DNA from: a virus
Virus record (IMG/VR): IMGVR_UViG_3300001846_000239
Location: 78,281 to 112,994 of that record
Reading direction: 5' to 3' (one strand)
Length of the DNA stretch: 34,714 nucleotides
The notes below the pieces were generated by a model. That model worked only from the letters and a program-made list of their open reading frames with translations. It made no database searches and was not told where the DNA came from. Each line of letters begins with the position of its first letter. Position 1 is the first letter of the stretch. A program made the position numbers and the translations under genes. Shown here piece after piece: positions 3-9,784 of the stretch.

Positions 3-371
3 GAATATGGAGATACCTTTGTACATATAAATGTTACAGGCGATGATAATACTATTCTCATGACACAAAGAACAAATAGTAGCTCCTCAGGTCATGAATA
101 TTGGCTACACCTCGAAGGAGACGATAATGATGTATATACTGTTCAAAGAGAAGGTGGAAGTCAATACATTAATTTAGATATTTACACCGATGGTAATGAT
201 GTTGACCTTATTCAAAAGAATGATGGTGATCATTACATGAGCGTTATATTAAGAGGAACAGAACCAACAGATATTGATGTTACTCAAAACAGCATTAATA
301 ATCAATCTTATAGTATTACGAATTATTGTTATACGGTTGGAGGTTGTGTTGTGTCGGTAACTCAACAATGA
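3..371 (+). CDS. Curlin-like (CsgA/CsgB-type) beta-solenoid repeat protein, C-terminal part; 5' truncated by the window edge
   Basis: The frame is open from base 3 (EYGDTFVHINVTGDDNTILMTQ...). It has ~23-aa repeats of the form x-[GD]-x-N-x-[VI]-x-x-x-Q (TGDDNTILMTQ, EGDDNDVYTVQ, TDGNDVDLIQ, PTDIDVTQ). The TGA stop overlaps the next ATG. Confidence 0.6.
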   Translation, partial: EYGDTFVHINVTGDDNTILMTQRTNSSSSGHEYWLHLEGDDNDVYTVQREGGSQYINLDIYTDGNDVDLIQKNDGDHYMSVILRGTEPTDIDVTQNSINNQSYSITNYCYTVGGCVVSVTQQ

Positions 372-2203
372 AATATATAACGTCAATATGGGCAACACTA
401 TTATTTGGCGTTGCTCTTATCGGACTTAGGGTTATAGATCCTCCAATGGTAGAGCAACTCAGGCTCAATACCTTTGATTCATATATTCGTAGCATTCCTT
501 CAAAGGAATCAAATATAGTATTATTGAATATTTCTGAAGATTCACTTGCTACACTCGGCCAATATCCATTTCCAAGACAAACTTATGCTCAAATGATATC
601 TGATCTCAGGAATGCGAACGCTGGTATTATTGGCTTTACTATTATGTTTCCAGAAGCTGATAGATTCGGTGGAGATGAAGTGTTTGCTTCATGGGTAAAA
701 GATAATGGTATCATATTGGCACAAGATGCGGATGAGGATGGTAGATCTACTTCAGCTCCTTATGTTGGTACAGCGGTATTTGGAACAGGAGATCCTTTAA
801 CCTATACAATCCGATATAAAGGTTTAGTCACTAATATACCACAAATAGAAGAAGGTGCGTGGGGACACGGTCTTATTAATGGTATGCCAGAAGTAGACGG
901 ATTAGTCAGAAGAATCCCGCTCATATCACAAATCAATGGACAACTATATCCATCATTTGCTTTAGAAACTATAAGAGTACTTAATGAAAAAATATCTTAT
1001 ACGGTAAAAGTGAATGAAGTCGGAATCGAAGAAATAATACTTAGACCATTTAGAATACCAACTGATGCCAATGGTTCTATGTGGATTAATCCGAATTACA
1101 CTTTTAAGGAAATAGACTACGTGTCCAATGAGTCACTACCCGATCTTCAGGGTGCAACTGTATTGGTGGGTCTGACGGCCAAAGGTCTAGCTGCACAGAT
1201 TGCAACGCCTGCTGGGATGAGGTCTGCGCATCATCTACAAGCCTCTGTAATTCAGACCTTAATGGAGCAAGAAACTCTTCGTCGTCCCGTGTGGGCGGAT
1301 CTTCTTGAGATTGTGGGAATGGTAGTTGGAGCTGTACTTCTTGTTTGTGCAGTTTATTATCTGCCAATTTGGATTTCATTTTCTATATTCTTCGCTATTG
1401 TTGGATTAAATAGTTATGGAGTCTATTACTTGTGGGACAAATCACAGATACTCCTCGACCTTAGCTATTCACTAATATTATATATACTTTTACTAACTTC
1501 AGCAAGCTTTAATAATTTCTACAAACAGTTCATGCTGAGACAACAGATCAAGAAACAATTCGAAACATATCTTGATCCGAGACAAGTTTATTTATTACAA
1601 AAGAATCCAGACTTATTAAAGCTCGGGGGTGAACGTAAAGAAATGACGTTCCTCTTTATGGATATATGTGGATTCACACCAGTTTCTGAATACTATAAAA
1701 ACAATGATGATCCGGAAGGATTAGTATTACTCATTAATGATTTCTTAGATAATATGACGAAGATCATACTAAAGAATGGTGGAACGATTGACAAATATAT
1801 GGGTGATTGTATTATGGCGTTTTGGAATGCACCAATAGATTGTCCAAATCATGCGGATATGGCAGTTCAAGCAGCAATTGAAATAGAGGAAAAGACGAAT
1901 GAACTTCGAAAAATTTACAAAGAAAGAGGTCTTCCTGACATTAAAGTCGGCACTGGCATTAATACCGGTGATTGCATTGTGGGGAATATGGGAAGCGAAT
2001 CAAGATTTGACTATTCAGTCATTGGAGATGCGGTTAACCTCGCAGCAAGACTTGAGGCTACAGCGGCAAGGGGAGATTATATTGATTGCCCAACCATTAT
2101 CTCAAGTTATACCGCAGATCAGTTAACAAGCGTAAAACCTAGACTGGTAGGTAATATCACGGTAAAGGGTAAAGAAGAACTCATAAAAATTTATTCCTTA
2201 TAA
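368..2203 (+). CDS. CHASE2-domain membrane adenylate cyclase (class III)
   Basis: The ATG at 368 forms an ATGA overlap with the upstream stop. There is an N-terminal TM helix, CHASE2-like motifs (LGQYPFPR, FPEADRFGGD, DGLVRRIPL) and 3 further TM helices. Cyclase motifs are FMDICGFT, DKYMGDCIMAFW and DYSVIGDAVNLAARLE, with the ATP-specifying Lys and Asp. Confidence 0.92.
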   Translation: MKYITSIWATLLFGVALIGLRVIDPPMVEQLRLNTFDSYIRSIPSKESNIVLLNISEDSLATLGQYPFPRQTYAQMISDLRNANAGIIGFTIMFPEADRFGGDEVFASWVKDNGIILAQDADEDGRSTSAPYVGTAVFGTGDPLTYTIRYKGLVTNIPQIEEGAWGHGLINGMPEVDGLVRRIPLISQINGQLYPSFALETIRVLNEKISYTVKVNEVGIEEIILRPFRIPTDANGSMWINPNYTFKEIDYVSNESLPDLQGATVLVGLTAKGLAAQIATPAGMRSAHHLQASVIQTLMEQETLRRPVWADLLEIVGMVVGAVLLVCAVYYLPIWISFSIFFAIVGLNSYGVYYLWDKSQILLDLSYSLILYILLLTSASFNNFYKQFMLRQQIKKQFETYLDPRQVYLLQKNPDLLKLGGERKEMTFLFMDICGFTPVSEYYKNNDDPEGLVLLINDFLDNMTKIILKNGGTIDKYMGDCIMAFWNAPIDCPNHADMAVQAAIEIEEKTNELRKIYKERGLPDIKVGTGINTGDCIVGNMGSESRFDYSVIGDAVNLAARLEATAARGDYIDCPTIISSYTADQLTSVKPRLVGNITVKGKEELIKIYSL

Positions 2204-2218
2204 CAAAAAGTTATAAGC

Positions 2219-2325
2219 TTATAACAAAAAAGTTTAAAAAAAGTGAAAAAAAGTGTGTACAAACCTTAAAAACCGCTGTATAATATGCATATATTAACCA
2301 AATTGATAAGGACTTACATTATGAA
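2219..2325 (+). repeat. Promoter/leader cassette, copy 1
   Basis: Highly similar to 3085-3202: TTATAACAAAAAAGT...AAAAAAAGTGTGTACAAACCTTAAAAAC(C/T)GCTGTATAATAT...TTGATAAGGA...TACATTATGAA. Confidence 0.85.
2256..2284 (+). promoter_or_regulatory. Early (sigma70-type) promoter P1
   Basis: TGTACA (2256-2261), 17 nt, TATAAT (2279-2284), with upstream A-tracts. Resembles the T4 early promoter GTTTAC-N17-TATAAT type. Confidence 0.85.
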
Positions 2326-3090: not shown

Positions 3091-3202
3091 CAAAAAAGTC
3101 TAAAAAAAGCGCATTTTTTTTAAAAAAAGTGTGTACAAACCTTAAAAACTGCTGTATAATATACACATATTAAACAATTTGATAAGGAATCTACATTATG
3201 AA
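3085..3202 (+). repeat. Promoter/leader cassette, copy 2
   Basis: Near-duplicate of 2219-2325. Confidence 0.85.
3132..3160 (+). promoter_or_regulatory. Early promoter P2
   Basis: TGTACA (3132-3137), N17, TATAAT (3155-3160). Confidence 0.85.
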
Positions 3203-4283: not shown

Positions 4284-4312
4284 TGTACAACAGTGTAAAA
4301 CTGTGATATAAT
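4284..4312 (+). promoter_or_regulatory. Early promoter P3
   Basis: Preceded by AAAAAAAGTG; TGTACA (4284-4289), N17, TATAAT (4307-4312). Confidence 0.85.
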
Positions 4313-4343
4313 GGTACCCACAAAATGAGAAAAGGAGTATATT

Positions 4344-4613
4344 ATGGATCGTATGGCTATGATCAAAGCAGCCGCTGAAAAACAGCGAGCTCAAAAAGAA
4401 TTTGACGAAACTGTAAAGAAGGTTTACAGTCGTCCAAAAAATGCGTATAGCAAACTAACGGCATCTGTCAAGAAAGCCGCACCTCAAGCACCAGGTAATC
4501 TGGACTGCTTCAAAGAAGAAAATATGTACTATTCAGATCGCGAGACTCAAGACTATCTTGCTGGTTCTTCCTATATGGATACGTACAATGCAATGAAAAA
4601 CGATTGGGATTAA
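4344..4613 (+). CDS. Hypothetical protein (89 aa)
   Basis: Strong RBS AAGGAG upstream; first gene after P3. Confidence 0.7.
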   Translation: MDRMAMIKAAAEKQRAQKEFDETVKKVYSRPKNAYSKLTASVKKAAPQAPGNLDCFKEENMYYSDRETQDYLAGSSYMDTYNAMKNDWD

Positions 4614-5139: not shown

Positions 5140-5295
5140 ATGTTGGAAGATTTATTAGGAATAGTTATCCTTGTCTTTGTCGGTATTTTTGCTATTGTTG
5201 GTTCAATTGCAGCCGATCAAGAACGACAAATTCGTAGGAAAAATTATAAAGCTGGAACCCATGACTACTATGGGAATAAGATTAAGAATGACTAA
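5140..5295 (+). CDS. Small single-TM protein (51 aa; not in the ORF track)
   Basis: Translates as MLEDLLGIVILVFVGIFAIVGSIAADQERQIRRKNYKAGTHDYYGNKIKND*. It fills the gap between 5137 and 5288, with TAGGA upstream. Confidence 0.65.
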   Translation: MLEDLLGIVILVFVGIFAIVGSIAADQERQIRRKNYKAGTHDYYGNKIKND

Positions 5296-5713
5296 CTTAG
5301 ATGTGTTATTCGAAAGATTAAGAGAGGAGGGTTGGTACTGTGGATGGGCCCACATGTGTTGTTCTAACTGCGCATGGATGGATGTTCCTACCTATCATGA
5401 AGAAGGTCCCTTTAAAGGAGAGGAAGTAGATCTGGATAAGTGTCTGTTTAATCATGAACAAGACTGTGAAGACGAAGATGCTTATGAAGATATGGACGAA
5501 GATGCTTATGAAGAAATGCTCGATGAACAAGATGGAGCATGCTTCATAACTCTGAGTCCTGATCAACTCGGTGAAAGTTGTTTTAATTTTTCACCGAATA
5601 AAACTGGTGTTGCTAATTTGAAAGCAATCCTACCAATAATTGAAGAGTGCGGTTGCACATATAATTGGAATGGAAAAGGCGACACAAGAATATCAATCAA
5701 TTGGGAGAAGTAA
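5288..5713 (+). CDS. Cys-rich acidic hypothetical protein (141 aa)
   Basis: Probable start is the ATG at 5288, overlapping the upstream ORF. Contains a CCSNCAW motif and an acidic DEDAYE repeat. Confidence 0.7.
   Translation: MTNLDVLFERLREEGWYCGWAHMCCSNCAWMDVPTYHEEGPFKGEEVDLDKCLFNHEQDCEDEDAYEDMDEDAYEEMLDEQDGACFITLSPDQLGESCFNFSPNKTGVANLKAILPIIEECGCTYNWNGKGDTRISINWEK
5471..5514 (+). repeat. In-frame tandem duplication, 24-bp period
   Basis: GACGAAGATGCTTATGAAGA occurs at 5471-5490 and 5495-5514. Confidence 0.9.
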
Positions 5714-5714
5714 G

Positions 5715-5939
5715 ATGTCAAATTATATGTTACTCAGTGAGTATTCAGGATCTGACAAATATTCGAATCGTAAAGCAGAAGTTCTACGATGCGTAGAAAA
5801 TAATAACTTTGGCATACGTATGTATATTGAAGGAGAGTCGTTAGGTATTGAATGGTACGAAGGTCATAGTGAAGCTTATGCGGAAAGCGCAGCTGAAAAC
5901 TATGTCGTAGGTATCAAAGATTACGAACGAACTATTTAG
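5715..5939 (+). CDS. Hypothetical protein (74 aa)
   Basis: The ATG at 5715 follows GGAG, immediately after the upstream stop. Confidence 0.7.
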   Translation: MSNYMLLSEYSGSDKYSNRKAEVLRCVENNNFGIRMYIEGESLGIEWYEGHSEAYAESAAENYVVGIKDYERTI

Positions 5940-5944
5940 TTTAT

Positions 5945-5998
5945 GGCGGGGTGCACTTTTATCTACTCCTTATCAATTGAAAAAAAGTGCATCCTGCC
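5945..5998 (+). other. 16-bp RNA hairpin with a 22-nt anti-Shine-Dalgarno loop (possible terminator or regulatory RNA)
   Basis: GGCGGGGTGCACTTTT (5945-5960) pairs with AAAAGTGCATCCTGCC (5983-5998) using two G-U pairs. The loop is ATCTACTCCTTATCAATTGAAA. Confidence 0.7.
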
Positions 5999-6000
5999 TG

Positions 6001-6029
6001 TTTACAAACGTAAAAAATCGTGTTATAAT
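6001..6029 (+). promoter_or_regulatory. Early promoter P4
   Basis: (G)TTTACA (6001-6006), N17, TATAAT (6024-6029); matches the T4 early -35 GTTTAC. Confidence 0.85.
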
Positions 6030-6057
6030 ACACATTATATTATGAAAGGAGTAAACT

Positions 6058-7209
6058 ATGGCAGAAAATAAAGTAAGAACAAAGATGAGGAAAAACAGGG
6101 TAACCCTTGATGATAAGCACATGGGTCCAGAACCTGCATTTTCTCCAGGCGAAACATCCGCTAACGTAGAAAACCGACTATCCATCTGGACAGGCGCGGC
6201 TCATTGGTATAACTATTTCCTAAAAGCAAAAGACTACGTTCCATCTGTTCTTGCGTTTGCCAAAGATGTTTACGGTTATGATAAGGATAAAATCAAAACA
6301 CTCAAAAAGTTAAAAGACTATGATCTTTCACCACTCGGTAAAGTTGCTAAGATACATTACCGTGGTTATGAGTATACTGAACAAGAATTTGAAAGGTTCG
6401 GACTTCAACTCGAAGAGATGTATAAAAAGGCATTAGTCACTGTAGAAGACATCGAAGAGAAAGCCGAAAAGAAACCTGTTATTACGATACAGCAAAGACA
6501 AAAAGCTAAAGTACTTGATACTATTATGGACGACTGGGATGCAGTGGTCGATGGTTGGATCTATGGAGACTTTAAAGTCAAATTTGATGCGTATAAACTG
6601 TTTAAACATTATGATCTAAAAGGTTCAGCTATTAACATGTTCAAAGACATGGTTATGAAAGAATACGAACCTTTGAAAGATGCGTATGAAAAGAAGTGTG
6701 ATCAAGCAGTAGAAGCATTCTCACACGTCAAGAAAACGAATCAGAAAAAGATGTTAGTACTCATGGAAACCATCTTCGAAGATTTAGATAAGTTAAAAGC
6801 TGCTACTAAAGCGGCAAGAGTTCCAAGAGTCAAGAAGCCTAAAGCTTCGGATATACAGGTCAAAAACCTTAAGTTCAAGGTTGAAGATATCGATGCTAAG
6901 TTAGCTTCGATTAATCCTGTGATGATTCCTGGTAAAGAGGTTTTATATGTTTATAATACTAAGACAAGGAAACTTACTCAGTATAAAACAAATTCAACCA
7001 AAGGGTTTGAGGTCAGCGGTACTACCATTAAGAATATCTGTACTAGTAGTAGAACAGCAACACTAAGGAAACCGGATGATATACTTCCATTGATCTTAAA
7101 CAAAACTATTAAACAAATCGACAAGCAAGTATGGGATACTTTGACTACAAAGATCAGTGTGCCGAATGGTAGAATCAATGCCGATTGTATACTACTTAGG
7201 GTATTATGA
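6058..7209 (+). CDS. Conserved T4-like phage hypothetical protein (383 aa)
   Basis: AAGGAG RBS; Lys-rich. C-terminal YNTKTRKL...GFEVSGTTI...TLRKP pattern, with an ATGA overlap into gp33. Confidence 0.8.
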   Translation: MAENKVRTKMRKNRVTLDDKHMGPEPAFSPGETSANVENRLSIWTGAAHWYNYFLKAKDYVPSVLAFAKDVYGYDKDKIKTLKKLKDYDLSPLGKVAKIHYRGYEYTEQEFERFGLQLEEMYKKALVTVEDIEEKAEKKPVITIQQRQKAKVLDTIMDDWDAVVDGWIYGDFKVKFDAYKLFKHYDLKGSAINMFKDMVMKEYEPLKDAYEKKCDQAVEAFSHVKKTNQKKMLVLMETIFEDLDKLKAATKAARVPRVKKPKASDIQVKNLKFKVEDIDAKLASINPVMIPGKEVLYVYNTKTRKLTQYKTNSTKGFEVSGTTIKNICTSSRTATLRKPDDILPLILNKTIKQIDKQVWDTLTTKISVPNGRINADCILLRVL

Positions 7210-7448
7210 GTATAGATATAGAGCAAAAAATCATGACGAGAAAACGGTTCTCCACTGCCGTCGAACAATTAGTGGCAAGAGGAAATATGTCGTACATTGA
7301 TGCAGCAACTTATATTATTGAAGAGAGAGGTATGGACTATAGTAACTTAAAGAAGCTATTGACAGACTCACTTAAAGATAAGATGGAAGCTGAAGCAATG
7401 AGGCTTAATTTAATCAGAGGCAAGAAAGGTAATAAACTACCAATTTAA
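7206..7448 (+). CDS. gp33: Late-transcription coactivator
   Basis: Motifs FSTAVEQLV...SYIDA...LKDKMEAEAMRLNLI; lies near genes 59 and 32. Confidence 0.85.
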   Translation: MSIDIEQKIMTRKRFSTAVEQLVARGNMSYIDAATYIIEERGMDYSNLKKLLTDSLKDKMEAEAMRLNLIRGKKGNKLPI

Positions 7449-7461
7449 TAAGGAAAAATAT

Positions 7462-7722
7462 ATGAGTAATGTGATTATACCATCATCCGATGCAGATAAG
7501 CAACGTGTCAAAGACTGTATTATTGAGATCAGTAATGCTCTGACTTTGATAGATGCGCAGCGTGACTTCATTAAAGAAGCCATTGCATCGTGTTGTGATG
7601 AGGTTGATGTTGATAAAAAATACTTGCGTAAAATGGCTAAGATTTATCATAAACAAAACCTACATGAAGTTGTTGGTGAAGTTGAAGATGTTGAAGCACT
7701 TTACGAAGGAGTAATGGTGTAA
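7462..7722 (+). CDS. dsbA: T4 DsbA-like dsDNA-binding protein
   Basis: IKEAI...VDKKYLRKMAKIYHKQN...VEALYE resembles T4 DsbA, and the gene is syntenic with 33/59/32. Confidence 0.75.
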   Translation: MSNVIIPSSDADKQRVKDCIIEISNALTLIDAQRDFIKEAIASCCDEVDVDKKYLRKMAKIYHKQNLHEVVGEVEDVEALYEGVMV

Positions 7723-7829
7723 TGTTTAAATTGCTAACAGCAATAGTTGAGGGATCATTTAAACTTGCAGGTTGGATCATTCTATCATCAGTAGTTCTAT
7801 TGATATATATGACCTGGGTTGGAGTGTAA
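7722..7829 (+). CDS. 35-aa hydrophobic peptide (not in the ORF track)
   Basis: Translates as MFKLLTAIVEGSFKLAGWIILSSVVLLIYMTWVGV*. It has TAATG overlaps at both ends and AAGGAG upstream. Confidence 0.6.
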   Translation: MFKLLTAIVEGSFKLAGWIILSSVVLLIYMTWVGV

Positions 7830-8416
7830 TGGATCCGTTTGAATCTTATAAATTGTACAATGCACTTAAGTTGCATTTTGAATCTGGGTATGATGCTGTT
7901 AAATACAACTTTAAATCTAATGTAACACCTGCGTCTTTTTTTAAGAGACGCGACAAATATTTTTTCGCTAAATTGGCGAAGAAACATAATAATAATTTGA
8001 AAGACTATTATATCTCAAACTTCAAAGTCGGACTAAGTTATGTCGGTGACATGATAGATGAAGAAGGTGAGAACAACTACAAAGAGCACAAAAGAATACA
8101 AGAAAGTATTCATCGAGTGTTCGCAGTTGATATAAATAGATTAGATGACCACAATATAGGTGTCGAGTTCAACAAACTCTTTGAGAGTTCTGACGGACAA
8201 CTACCTGAGGTCATAAAGTTATGGATGCAAGAAGAAATATCATTGGAAACTGTGGTCATTCTTAATTCCATATTGGGGTTCGTACCTCGTGAATCTAAAC
8301 GGATAACAGATACCATCATCTGGCCTGATATCCAACGGAAGATCGAAAAGTACACTCCATTTGTAAACTTTAATGTTAACAAGTGTAAGACAATGTTAAC
8401 AAATAAGTTTACTTAA
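7829..8416 (+). CDS. gp59: Helicase loader
   Basis: Start at ATG 7829 (GGAG upstream). Motifs YKLYNALKLHF...YDAVKYN...FFKRRDKYFFAKL and ISLETVVIL; directly upstream of gene 32. Confidence 0.88.
   Translation: MDPFESYKLYNALKLHFESGYDAVKYNFKSNVTPASFFKRRDKYFFAKLAKKHNNNLKDYYISNFKVGLSYVGDMIDEEGENNYKEHKRIQESIHRVFAVDINRLDDHNIGVEFNKLFESSDGQLPEVIKLWMQEEISLETVVILNSILGFVPRESKRITDTIIWPDIQRKIEKYTPFVNFNVNKCKTMLTNKFT
8131..8138 (+). promoter_or_regulatory. Possible late promoter for gene 32, inside gene 59
   Basis: Exact TATAAATA match. Confidence 0.4.
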
Positions 8417-8563: not shown

Positions 8564-9463
8564 ATGTCATTTGCAAATTTAAAGAGCTCACGAGGCTCGT
8601 CAATCGACAAACTCGTAAAAGCAGCTGAAGCTGTATCTACTAAAACTGAAACTAAATCATATGATGATGATAGGTTTTGGAAACCCTCGAAGGATAAAGC
8701 AGGTAATGGTTATGCCGTTATTAGATTCCTACCCGCTCAAGAAGGTGAAGATCTTCCATGGGTAAGGTATTGGGATCACGGATTTAAAGGTCCAACTGGT
8801 TTATGGTATATCGAGAATAGTCTAACTACAATCGGTCAAGATGATCCAGTATCTGAAGCTAATTCAGTACTGTGGAATAGTGGTCGTGATGAAGATAAGG
8901 CTATCGCACGGGAAAGAAAAAGACGTCTACACTATGTATCAAACATCTTAGTCGTTTCTGATCCTGCAAATCCACAAAACGAAGGTAAGGTATTCCTTTA
9001 CAAATTTGGTAAAAAGATCTTTGACAAAATCATGGATGTAATGCAGCCACAATTTGCAGATGAAGATCCTGTGAATCCTTATGATTTTTGGGAAGGTGCG
9101 GACTTTAAAATTAAGATCCGTAAAGTTGAAGGTTGGGTGAACTATGATAAATCAGAGTTTGCTAGTGCTGCGCCACTATACAATGGTGACGAGGCTCGAC
9201 TAGAAGAAGTATACAACAAGCTATACTCACTTAACGACTTTGTTGATCCTAAAAACTATAAGTCTTATGATGAACTCAAAGCTAAGTTGAATAAAGTATT
9301 GGGTGTTGATGCCGGTCATGCGGCTGTTGAAGCTCCAATGGTTGAAGCGCCAGTAGTTGAACAACCTACTATTGCTTCGGCTGATTCAGCTCCGTTTAGT
9401 ACAAGCGATGAGGCTGAAGAAGATACACTGTCTTACTTCGACAAACTAGCCCAACAGGGATAA
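8564..9463 (+). CDS. gp32: Single-stranded DNA-binding protein
   Basis: Motifs DDRFWKP..DKAGNGYAVIRFLP, HGFKGPTGLWYIENSLTT, GKVFLYKFGKKIFDKI and NYDKSEF, plus an acidic tail ending LSYFDKLA. Confidence 0.97.
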   Translation: MSFANLKSSRGSSIDKLVKAAEAVSTKTETKSYDDDRFWKPSKDKAGNGYAVIRFLPAQEGEDLPWVRYWDHGFKGPTGLWYIENSLTTIGQDDPVSEANSVLWNSGRDEDKAIARERKRRLHYVSNILVVSDPANPQNEGKVFLYKFGKKIFDKIMDVMQPQFADEDPVNPYDFWEGADFKIKIRKVEGWVNYDKSEFASAAPLYNGDEARLEEVYNKLYSLNDFVDPKNYKSYDELKAKLNKVLGVDAGHAAVEAPMVEAPVVEQPTIASADSAPFSTSDEAEEDTLSYFDKLAQQG

Positions 9464-9680: not shown

Positions 9681-9755
9681 CTAAACTAGGAGAAACAATA
9701 AAAACCGGAAGGTATATGACTCGTAAAAAAGCTTATGCTGAGATGGTAATGTTTG

Positions 9756-9784
9756 AGGGTCCCTGCAAAAGGGACCCTTTTTTT
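9756..9784 (+). terminator. Rho-independent terminator between convergent operons
   Basis: AGGGTCCC-TGCAAAA-GGGACCCT followed by a T-run. Confidence 0.85.

Follow-up and report, generated by a model that had tools for sequence, protein, structure and literature searches.

What function is served by a stable hairpin placed between two early genes of a marine phage, and why does its loop resemble the complement of a ribosome-binding site (RBS)? The window, meaning the whole stretch of DNA analysed here, is the 34.7-kb end of a 113-kb IMG/VR virus contig (36% GC, approximately 63% complete) from an uncultured marine T4-like myovirus. The nearest isolates are myophages of the OM43/SAR11 type; by gp32 they are phage C48C1 and the OM43 myophage Melnitz, a Methylophilales phage, at approximately 57% identity. 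The gene set is of the T4 type, with baseplate genes further along the window. Table 1 presents the positions of the features under discussion. Between 2200 and 6060, small plus-strand open reading frames (ORFs) are organized into runs, every one of which opens with a sigma70-type promoter (TGTACA or TTTACA, 17 nt and TATAAT) that is preceded by an A-rich block. By consensus matching, about 20 such early promoters are present in the whole contig. The original prediction had recognized four copies, P1 to P4, and these were found again in both the consensus and the repeat comparison; the positions that it gave for the hairpin, the promoters and the leader matches all proved correct on recheck.

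Table 1. Positions of the hairpin, the early promoters and leaders, and the neighbouring genes in the window.
Feature	Position	Strand	Remarks
P1 cassette	2246-2323	+	promoter 2256-2284; leader motif AATTGATAAGGA at 2301-2312; ATG at 2321
P2 cassette	3122-3200	+	promoter 3132-3160; leader TTGATAAGGA at 3179-3188; ATG at 3198
P3	4284-4346	+	promoter 4284-4312; RBS AAGGAGTA at 4332-4339; ATG at 4344
74-aa ORF upstream of hairpin	5715-5939	+	TAG stop 5 nt before hairpin; C-terminus conserved in relatives
Hairpin, 5' arm	5945-5960	+	GGCGGGGTGCACTTTT; covaries with 3' arm in relatives
Hairpin, 22-nt apical loop	5961-5982	+	ATCTACTCCTTATCAATTGAAA / AUCUACUCCUUAUCAAUUGAAA; predicted opening cost about 1 kcal/mol
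Hairpin, loop core	5965-5975	+	ACUCCUUAUCA; complement of early-leader RBS motif UGAUAAGGAGU
Hairpin, 3' arm	5983-5998	+	AAAAGTGCATCCTGCC; includes AAAAGTG block
Early promoter P4	6001-6029	+	TTTACA, 17 nt, TG-TATAAT; consensus match
P4 leader	6046-6060	+	RBS AAGGAGTA at 6046-6053; 8-nt complement to loop
383-aa gene (phrog_11903)	6058-7209	+	ATG at 6058; RBS AAGGAGTA from 6046
gp33, late-transcription coactivator	7206-7448
DsbA	7462-7722
gp59	7772-8416
gp32	8564-9463

Several other features of the region were recorded. A 625-aa protein encoded at 326-2203 (+) combines a CHASE2 sensor with an adenylate/guanylate cyclase catalytic domain (Pfam E-values of 1e-39 and 6e-18), and a similar cyclase adjoins a curli module in Melnitz. 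Weak AU hairpins of the form TTATAAC-A5/6-GTTATAA/GTYTAA lie upstream of P1 (2186-2243) and P2 (3073-3109) within a duplicated cassette. At 5471-5518 (+), inside the ORF at 5171-5713, a tandem 24-nt repeat, GACGAAGATGCTTATGAAGA(T/A)ATG, encodes an acidic DEDAYEDM repeat. On the 3' side of gene 32, a canonical intrinsic terminator is found at 9755-9779 (+), consisting of a 10-bp stem, a 5-nt loop and a T-run. The 383-aa protein encoded immediately downstream of the hairpin has no Pfam assignment and no PDB match below an E-value of 0.01, and the protein atlas held no usable match. In its AlphaFold model (mean pLDDT 67.8), a helical N-terminal domain is predicted with confidence and the C-terminus is modelled poorly; the C-terminal third of the protein is rich in invariant residues, and the protein is kept in both of the clades described below.

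The hairpin folds as had been proposed, with a 16-bp stem that contains two G.U pairs, and it lies just upstream of P4, as proposed, behind the 74-aa ORF and with its 3' arm abutting the -35 element of the promoter (6001-6006). Its minimum free energy is -26.5 kcal/mol (z-score -5.87), a value that none of 200 shuffled sequences could equal. The AAAAGTG block of the 3' arm is found elsewhere as the A-rich upstream element of early promoters. In the promoter scan, no promoter-like site was called just upstream of the hairpin. Since no such site was called and the hairpin starts directly behind the stop codon of the 74-aa ORF, a small RNA (sRNA) that contained it would be derived from a 3' end. 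A permissive cmscan of positions 5850-6100 against Rfam returned unrelated best matches, all far below gathering scores and none of them C4, and megablast of the locus against phage records gave no match.

The loop is exactly complementary to RBS sequences behind the early promoters, and each of the individual matches on which the original prediction was built could be reproduced. Loop positions 5967-5978 are the complement of the P1 leader over 12 nt, positions 5967-5976 are the complement of the P2 leader over 10 nt, and positions 5964-5971 are the complement of AAGGAGTA over 8 nt behind both P3 and P4. The broader claim, that leader-specific bases are paired behind each of the four promoters, applies to the P1/P2 cassette family and not to P3 and P4, where the match amounts to a generic Shine-Dalgarno (SD) sequence plus UA. 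The P1 and P2 cassettes are 93% identical over 67 nt, and as a paralogous pair their loop matches should be counted as one event, not two. When the CTCCTT core was held fixed and the flanks were shuffled, four leaders with complementarity of at least 10 nt arose in 0.28% of cases and a 12-nt match in 1.4%, which places the complementarity beyond the CUCCUU core at p values of about 0.003-0.014. A genome-wide duplex scan ranked the P1 and P2 leaders within the top 25 of 22,594 scanned segments, with several coding sites scoring as well or better. With the loop open, the predicted net pairing energies with the P1-P4 leaders are -11 to -12 kcal/mol, and seven of the 20 early transcripts of this genome, P1-P4 included, reach -11 to -13 kcal/mol at the RBS.

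Relatives of the locus were retrieved mostly through the neighbouring protein and not through the loop. The 383-aa gene as query yielded 43 loci, to which a scan with the loop pattern added L046 and L055, and the L055 homologue of the 383-aa gene, used as query in turn, gave access to a second, deeper clade with 44-47% protein identity to the window. When metagenomes were scanned with the loop pattern, already known variants came back and no new ones; the other matches were due to chance, including a perfect palindrome in a bacterial coding gene (L288) that was dismissed as a coincidence. Altogether there are 29 distinct hairpin variants in four classes whose stem sequences are unrelated to one another. 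Class A, with a stem of the GGCGGGGTGCAC type, comprises the window and its close relatives. Classes B and C belong to clade 2, the former with a GGGGG-nnn-GGG / CCC-tga-CCCCC stem and the latter with an 11-bp GGCUGrGUCUC stem, a 5-nt bulge and a 3-bp apical helix. Class D has a stem of the UCGGGGAUUUCUUUG type and is found in two loci (L021 and L022), approximately 0.9 kb further upstream. In class A, 94.7% of cells are paired and compensatory changes occur in seven of 13 pairs; in class C, 99.1% of cells are paired, with compensatory changes in eight of 14 pairs. No shuffle attained either pairing value, and slid registers fall to 28-54% paired. The class A stems contain 18 G.U or U.G cells versus a single C.A cell, and hence the folded strand is the plus-strand RNA. 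The covariance model scores 83.4 bits on the plus strand and 13.9 on the minus strand. Stem covariation and the direction of the G.U bias thus bear out the suggestion that the stem operates as plus-strand RNA.

These same observations weigh against a reading in which the segment is a neutral remnant of an inverted leader cassette, or else serves a minus-strand gene or mini-ORF as its RBS. Its reverse complement, CAATTGATAAGGAGTAGATAAAAGTG, is indeed leader-like and includes a start codon at the distance usual for an RBS, and a start-like codon sits at the top of the stem in all class A variants. The 6-codon minus-strand GTG ORF that had been noted in the window is real (MHPAIN*), but an ORF of other length and sequence takes its place elsewhere, and all of the neighbouring genes are on the plus strand. 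On the minus strand the 18 G.U cells become C.A mismatches. A minus-strand RBS or gene was rejected because of the plus-sense G.U bias, the short and variable ORF and the covariance score. A neutral remnant is unlikely in view of a loop that is invariant across four stem classes that have been replaced wholesale, although the loop may still have originated from an inverted leader. Taken together, this reading is very improbable.

The loop behaves differently from the stem. Conservation of the loop had been put forward as a test of the original prediction, and it held: the core ACUCCUUAUCA is identical in 28 of the 29 variants, and the remaining one, class D, differs by a single C-to-U change (AUUA in place of AUCA). 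Around the core, loop length ranges from 15 to 26 nt and shifts by single bases, and the reading frame across the core differs among variants, both of which indicate that the element is non-coding; a peptide reading was rejected on account of the differing frames. Among the loci examined, no hairpin of the same kind with a different loop was found. Given that most variants were retrieved through the protein and that no other loop type turned up, the loop is the selected part and the stem only a scaffold. The data support strong purifying selection on the loop. The hairpin is best explained as a plus-strand RNA structure, conserved and non-coding, that is carried within the early transcripts of a marine T4-like clade.

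Within that clade the distribution of the hairpin is uneven. At the same gene junction, relatives may have the hairpin and a promoter, a promoter only, or neither. The covariance model found a single copy of the hairpin in each contig to which it was applied, and in the sampled parts of contigs that lack it at the junction the only copies elsewhere were those of class D. Neither Melnitz nor C48C1 has the hairpin, and in both the leader motif occurs only at chance level.

In both clades, one class of promoter-proximal early leaders has the complement of the loop core, UGAUAAGGAG(U), as its RBS motif, which takes the form UGAUAAGGA(A/G) in clade 1 and (U)GAUAAGGAGUU in clade 2. This motif exceeds what is needed for pairing with 16S rRNA by UGA on its upstream side and U(U) on its downstream side. 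The genome of the window has three UGAUAAGGA(A/G) leaders, GAUAAGGAGUU at a fourth and a near-match, UUGAUGAAGGAGUU, at a fifth, while another genome (G001) has four copies of the UGAUAAGGA(A/G) motif. In clade 2, at least one leader is an exact 12-nt complement of the loop core of that clade, AACUCCUUAUCA. In several genomes, the orthologue of the P2 gene retains a motif leader, at a distance of approximately 2.4-2.8 kb upstream from the hairpin. Among loci ascertained by protein only, a complement of at least 9 nt was present in 21 of 114 distinct early leaders and in five of 411 other gene starts (odds ratio 18, p = 6e-11, a value that overstates independence, since orthologues and paralogues make up many of the 21). 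In five hairpin-less contigs, all eight occurrences of the motif are early leaders. These contigs without a sampled hairpin are 10-39% complete, and the presence of the motif in them indicates that it does not depend on the hairpin.

The match has imperfections. Loops of the L002 and L044 types agree with the consensus leader over only 9 nt, and clade-1 leaders with GGAA meet the CUCC of the loop with an A.C mismatch. Covariation between the flanks of the loop and those of the leaders, which the original prediction had proposed as a check, was not seen. Within the core, covariation between loop and leader cannot be scored since both partners are invariant there. The loop was also considered as a mimic of the extended 3' tail of host 16S rRNA (CCUCCUUAUCA). 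This idea was abandoned as uninformative: matches were mostly to non-rRNA sequence, with a few scattered Gammaproteobacteria MAGs, the scan of genome contigs gave no host signal, and the loop differs from 16S upstream of CUCC.

An invariant 11-mer that occurs in leaders and, in the opposite orientation, in the hairpin could also be a site in double-stranded DNA. In such a scheme, TGATAAGGAGT would be bound by a DNA-binding regulator, its orientation upstream of P4 being the reverse of that in the leaders, where it stands at about +20 to +30. Such a site is highly unlikely. In four independent stem classes the sequence is enclosed, as a loop, by an RNA stem that covaries, it is also present where no promoter follows, and no candidate regulator is known. 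In the leaders, moreover, the motif coincides with the SD, which already accounts for part of its conservation.

A partner closer at hand is the RBS of the next gene. In T4, the genes e, soc, 49 and I-TevI are the paradigm of RBS occlusion in read-through transcripts, and by the same logic the loop could mask the RBS of the 383-aa gene in read-through RNA so that the gene would be translated only from mRNAs initiated at P4. The arrangement is suitable: in the window, and in most variants of classes A and C, the anti-SD and the SD are separated by a promoter, and the P4 leader can form 8 contiguous base pairs with the loop, or 11 with one bulge, at a net -11.0 kcal/mol. The downstream RBS contexts vary, however, and the loop core does not. 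No covariation was detected between the 5' flank of the loop and the flank of the downstream RBS, there are no compensatory changes, and the L002 loop loses a pair. The conserved UAUCA part of the loop has no partner in the downstream leaders. The loop core is unchanged even in three variants (L356, L357 and L360) where a GGAG SD is missing from the next ORF. Occlusion of the adjacent RBS is therefore not the general role of the element, and its constancy points to a partner that is invariant and distant instead of local. As an explanation for the family, occlusion in cis of the next RBS is distinctly unlikely.

The surroundings of the hairpin call to mind the promoter-early stem-loop (PeSL) cassettes of T4-like phages (Arbiol et al. 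2010, PMC2839356; Comeau et al. 2014, PMC4122927). The published stem-loops have short stems made of G/C runs or A/T runs, occur as many repeats, have no conserved loop and are called terminators, and the cassettes behave as indels between related genomes (PMC2839356, PMC4122927). The order of parts in the window is the same: a stem-loop (5945-5998), a sigma70-type promoter with an A-rich upstream block, an SD and an ATG. The hyperplastic early region of small ORFans, the presence or absence of the cassette between close relatives, and the repetition of promoter/leader cassettes in P1 and P2 are likewise shared. In contrast, the hairpin is not a repeated element, it presents a loop of 15-26 nt, the conserved part is the loop and not the stem, and in some relatives no promoter is adjacent. 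The architecture is PeSL-like with these differences.

It could be argued on this basis that the hairpin is an ordinary PeSL stem-loop serving as a terminator, attenuator or 3'-end stabilizer, whose loop is kept for a protein (a phage or host RNA-binding factor or a nuclease) or for some other RNA-level reason, and whose likeness to leaders stems from its origin as an inverted leader. PeSL stem-loops of RB49 terminate efficiently in vivo (PMC2839356), the hairpin stands beside a strong early promoter and shows the same indels between relatives, and class C hairpins that have a downstream promoter are followed by runs of T6-T8. Although the stem is GC-rich, a 22-nt loop is far from the 3-8 nt of an intrinsic terminator, and the consensus scan called the terminator behind gene 32, with its 5-nt loop and strong T-run, and not the hairpin. 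What follows the stem in the window is only UGUUUAC, which doubles as the -35 element, and the promoterless variants mostly have no T-run. Nine clade-2 variants have an RBS 6-10 nt behind the hairpin and no intervening promoter, so that the hairpin cannot be an efficient terminator there; in L055 a promoter is located upstream of the hairpin. A candidate protein for the loop is lacking, and coincidence or history would have to account for a loop that is the exact complement of a conserved leader motif. An ordinary PeSL stem-loop is on the unlikely side as an account of the whole, though less so than any of the readings weighed above.

A stem that changes and a loop that is frozen, complementary to an invariant leader motif present in multiple copies, are most simply read as RNA-RNA recognition of the leaders. 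The reading tentatively preferred here is that of an anti-RBS loop, either embedded in mRNA or derived from its 3' end, that may pair with early leaders. The stable, freely evolving stem would hold out the invariant single-stranded loop, and the loop would pair with the RBS motif of promoter-proximal early leaders, namely those of P1 and P2, and more weakly, through SD+UA, with those of P3 and P4. At least three further leaders elsewhere in the genome may be targets. Pairing would occlude the SD region, with early translation being damped or timed as a result. Two routes can be envisaged. In trans, a 3' fragment of the upstream early mRNAs, protected by the hairpin, could accumulate and act upon other messages; in cis, a long-range 5'-3' contact could form within the same operon transcript. 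Two further points count against the anti-RBS loop. A single hairpin copy faces many strong early leaders, which poses a problem of stoichiometry, and a 12-bp helix within the 15-nt loop of class C would be sterically strained.

An experimentally proven parallel to such pairing is the icaR mRNA of Staphylococcus aureus, whose 3'-UTR carries a UCCCCUG motif that pairs with its own SD (Ruiz de los Mozos et al. 2013, PMC3868564). The outcome for this monocistronic message is blocked initiation and cleavage by RNase III (PMC3868564). As with icaR, a pyrimidine-rich anti-SD motif is found on the 3' side of a message, and the loop of the hairpin is complementary to the upstream P1 and P2 leaders over 10-12 nt. 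Unlike in icaR, the partners in the phage are 2.4-3.7 kb apart in a polycistronic early region, several leaders share the motif, and the pairing is predicted from sequence. Phages also provide the precedent of c4, an RNA that is processed from the transcript it regulates and whose loops pair with RBS-proximal targets to block translation. The c4 antisense RNA is that of phages P1 and P7 (Citron & Schuster 1990, as cited in PMC12197685). The proposed function is similar, as a phage-encoded RNA would direct a loop against RBS-proximal sequence. The two share no similarity of sequence or structure, however, and c4 acts in the immunity of temperate phages whereas the phage element is a single hairpin of a lytic T4-like phage. 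Hairpins 13 and 14 of RNAIII from S. aureus, OxyS and LhrC display anti-SD seeds in their loops, including those of terminator hairpins, and each addresses several mRNA targets. They share the loop-displayed anti-SD with the phage hairpin but are independent sRNA genes with their own promoters, and no dedicated promoter was seen for the hairpin. The hairpin is a member of none of these three systems.

Nearly everything known of post-transcriptional control in T4-like phages concerns proteins (RegA, RegB, gp32 and gp43), and to our knowledge a conserved riboregulator acting on their early translation is yet to be described. It is conceivable, though doubtful, that a widespread marine T4-like clade uses the mRNA-embedded hairpin as a shut-off of early genes, with the loop directed against a private RBS tag, UGAUAAGGAGU. 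If so, the hairpin would achieve by RNA what T4 achieves by the proteins RegB and RegA. A search of the contig for RegB (PF10715) was silent, as was its control, which makes the search uninformative. The PeSL concept is also refined, since at least one stem-loop of the PeSL type carries sequence information in its loop. What is new is a conserved plus-strand RNA family with a putative anti-RBS loop, which is a good candidate for tuning early protein synthesis. Rfam has no family for this hairpin, which has kept an 11-nt loop while its stem was rewritten four times. A 55-nt RNA and a 40-nt leader offer a candidate pair for RNA-based timing of early genes that would be cheap to test, in abundant marine phages with hosts that are difficult to grow in culture.

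Two observations were made on gene order in the relatives. The class D hairpin (L021:990-1046, and also in L022) has a different stem, the loop AACUCCUUAUUA and a U-rich run after it; it is located directly before a P2-like gene (MKSL...), where other genomes have a promoter and a UGAUAAGGA leader. In clade 2 (L353-L376), a conserved ORF encoding a single-pass membrane peptide of approximately 40-70 aa (for example, MDILIGIILVTLSFLFAY...) precedes the homologue of the 383-aa gene, and the hairpin comes before this ORF in some genomes and after it in others.
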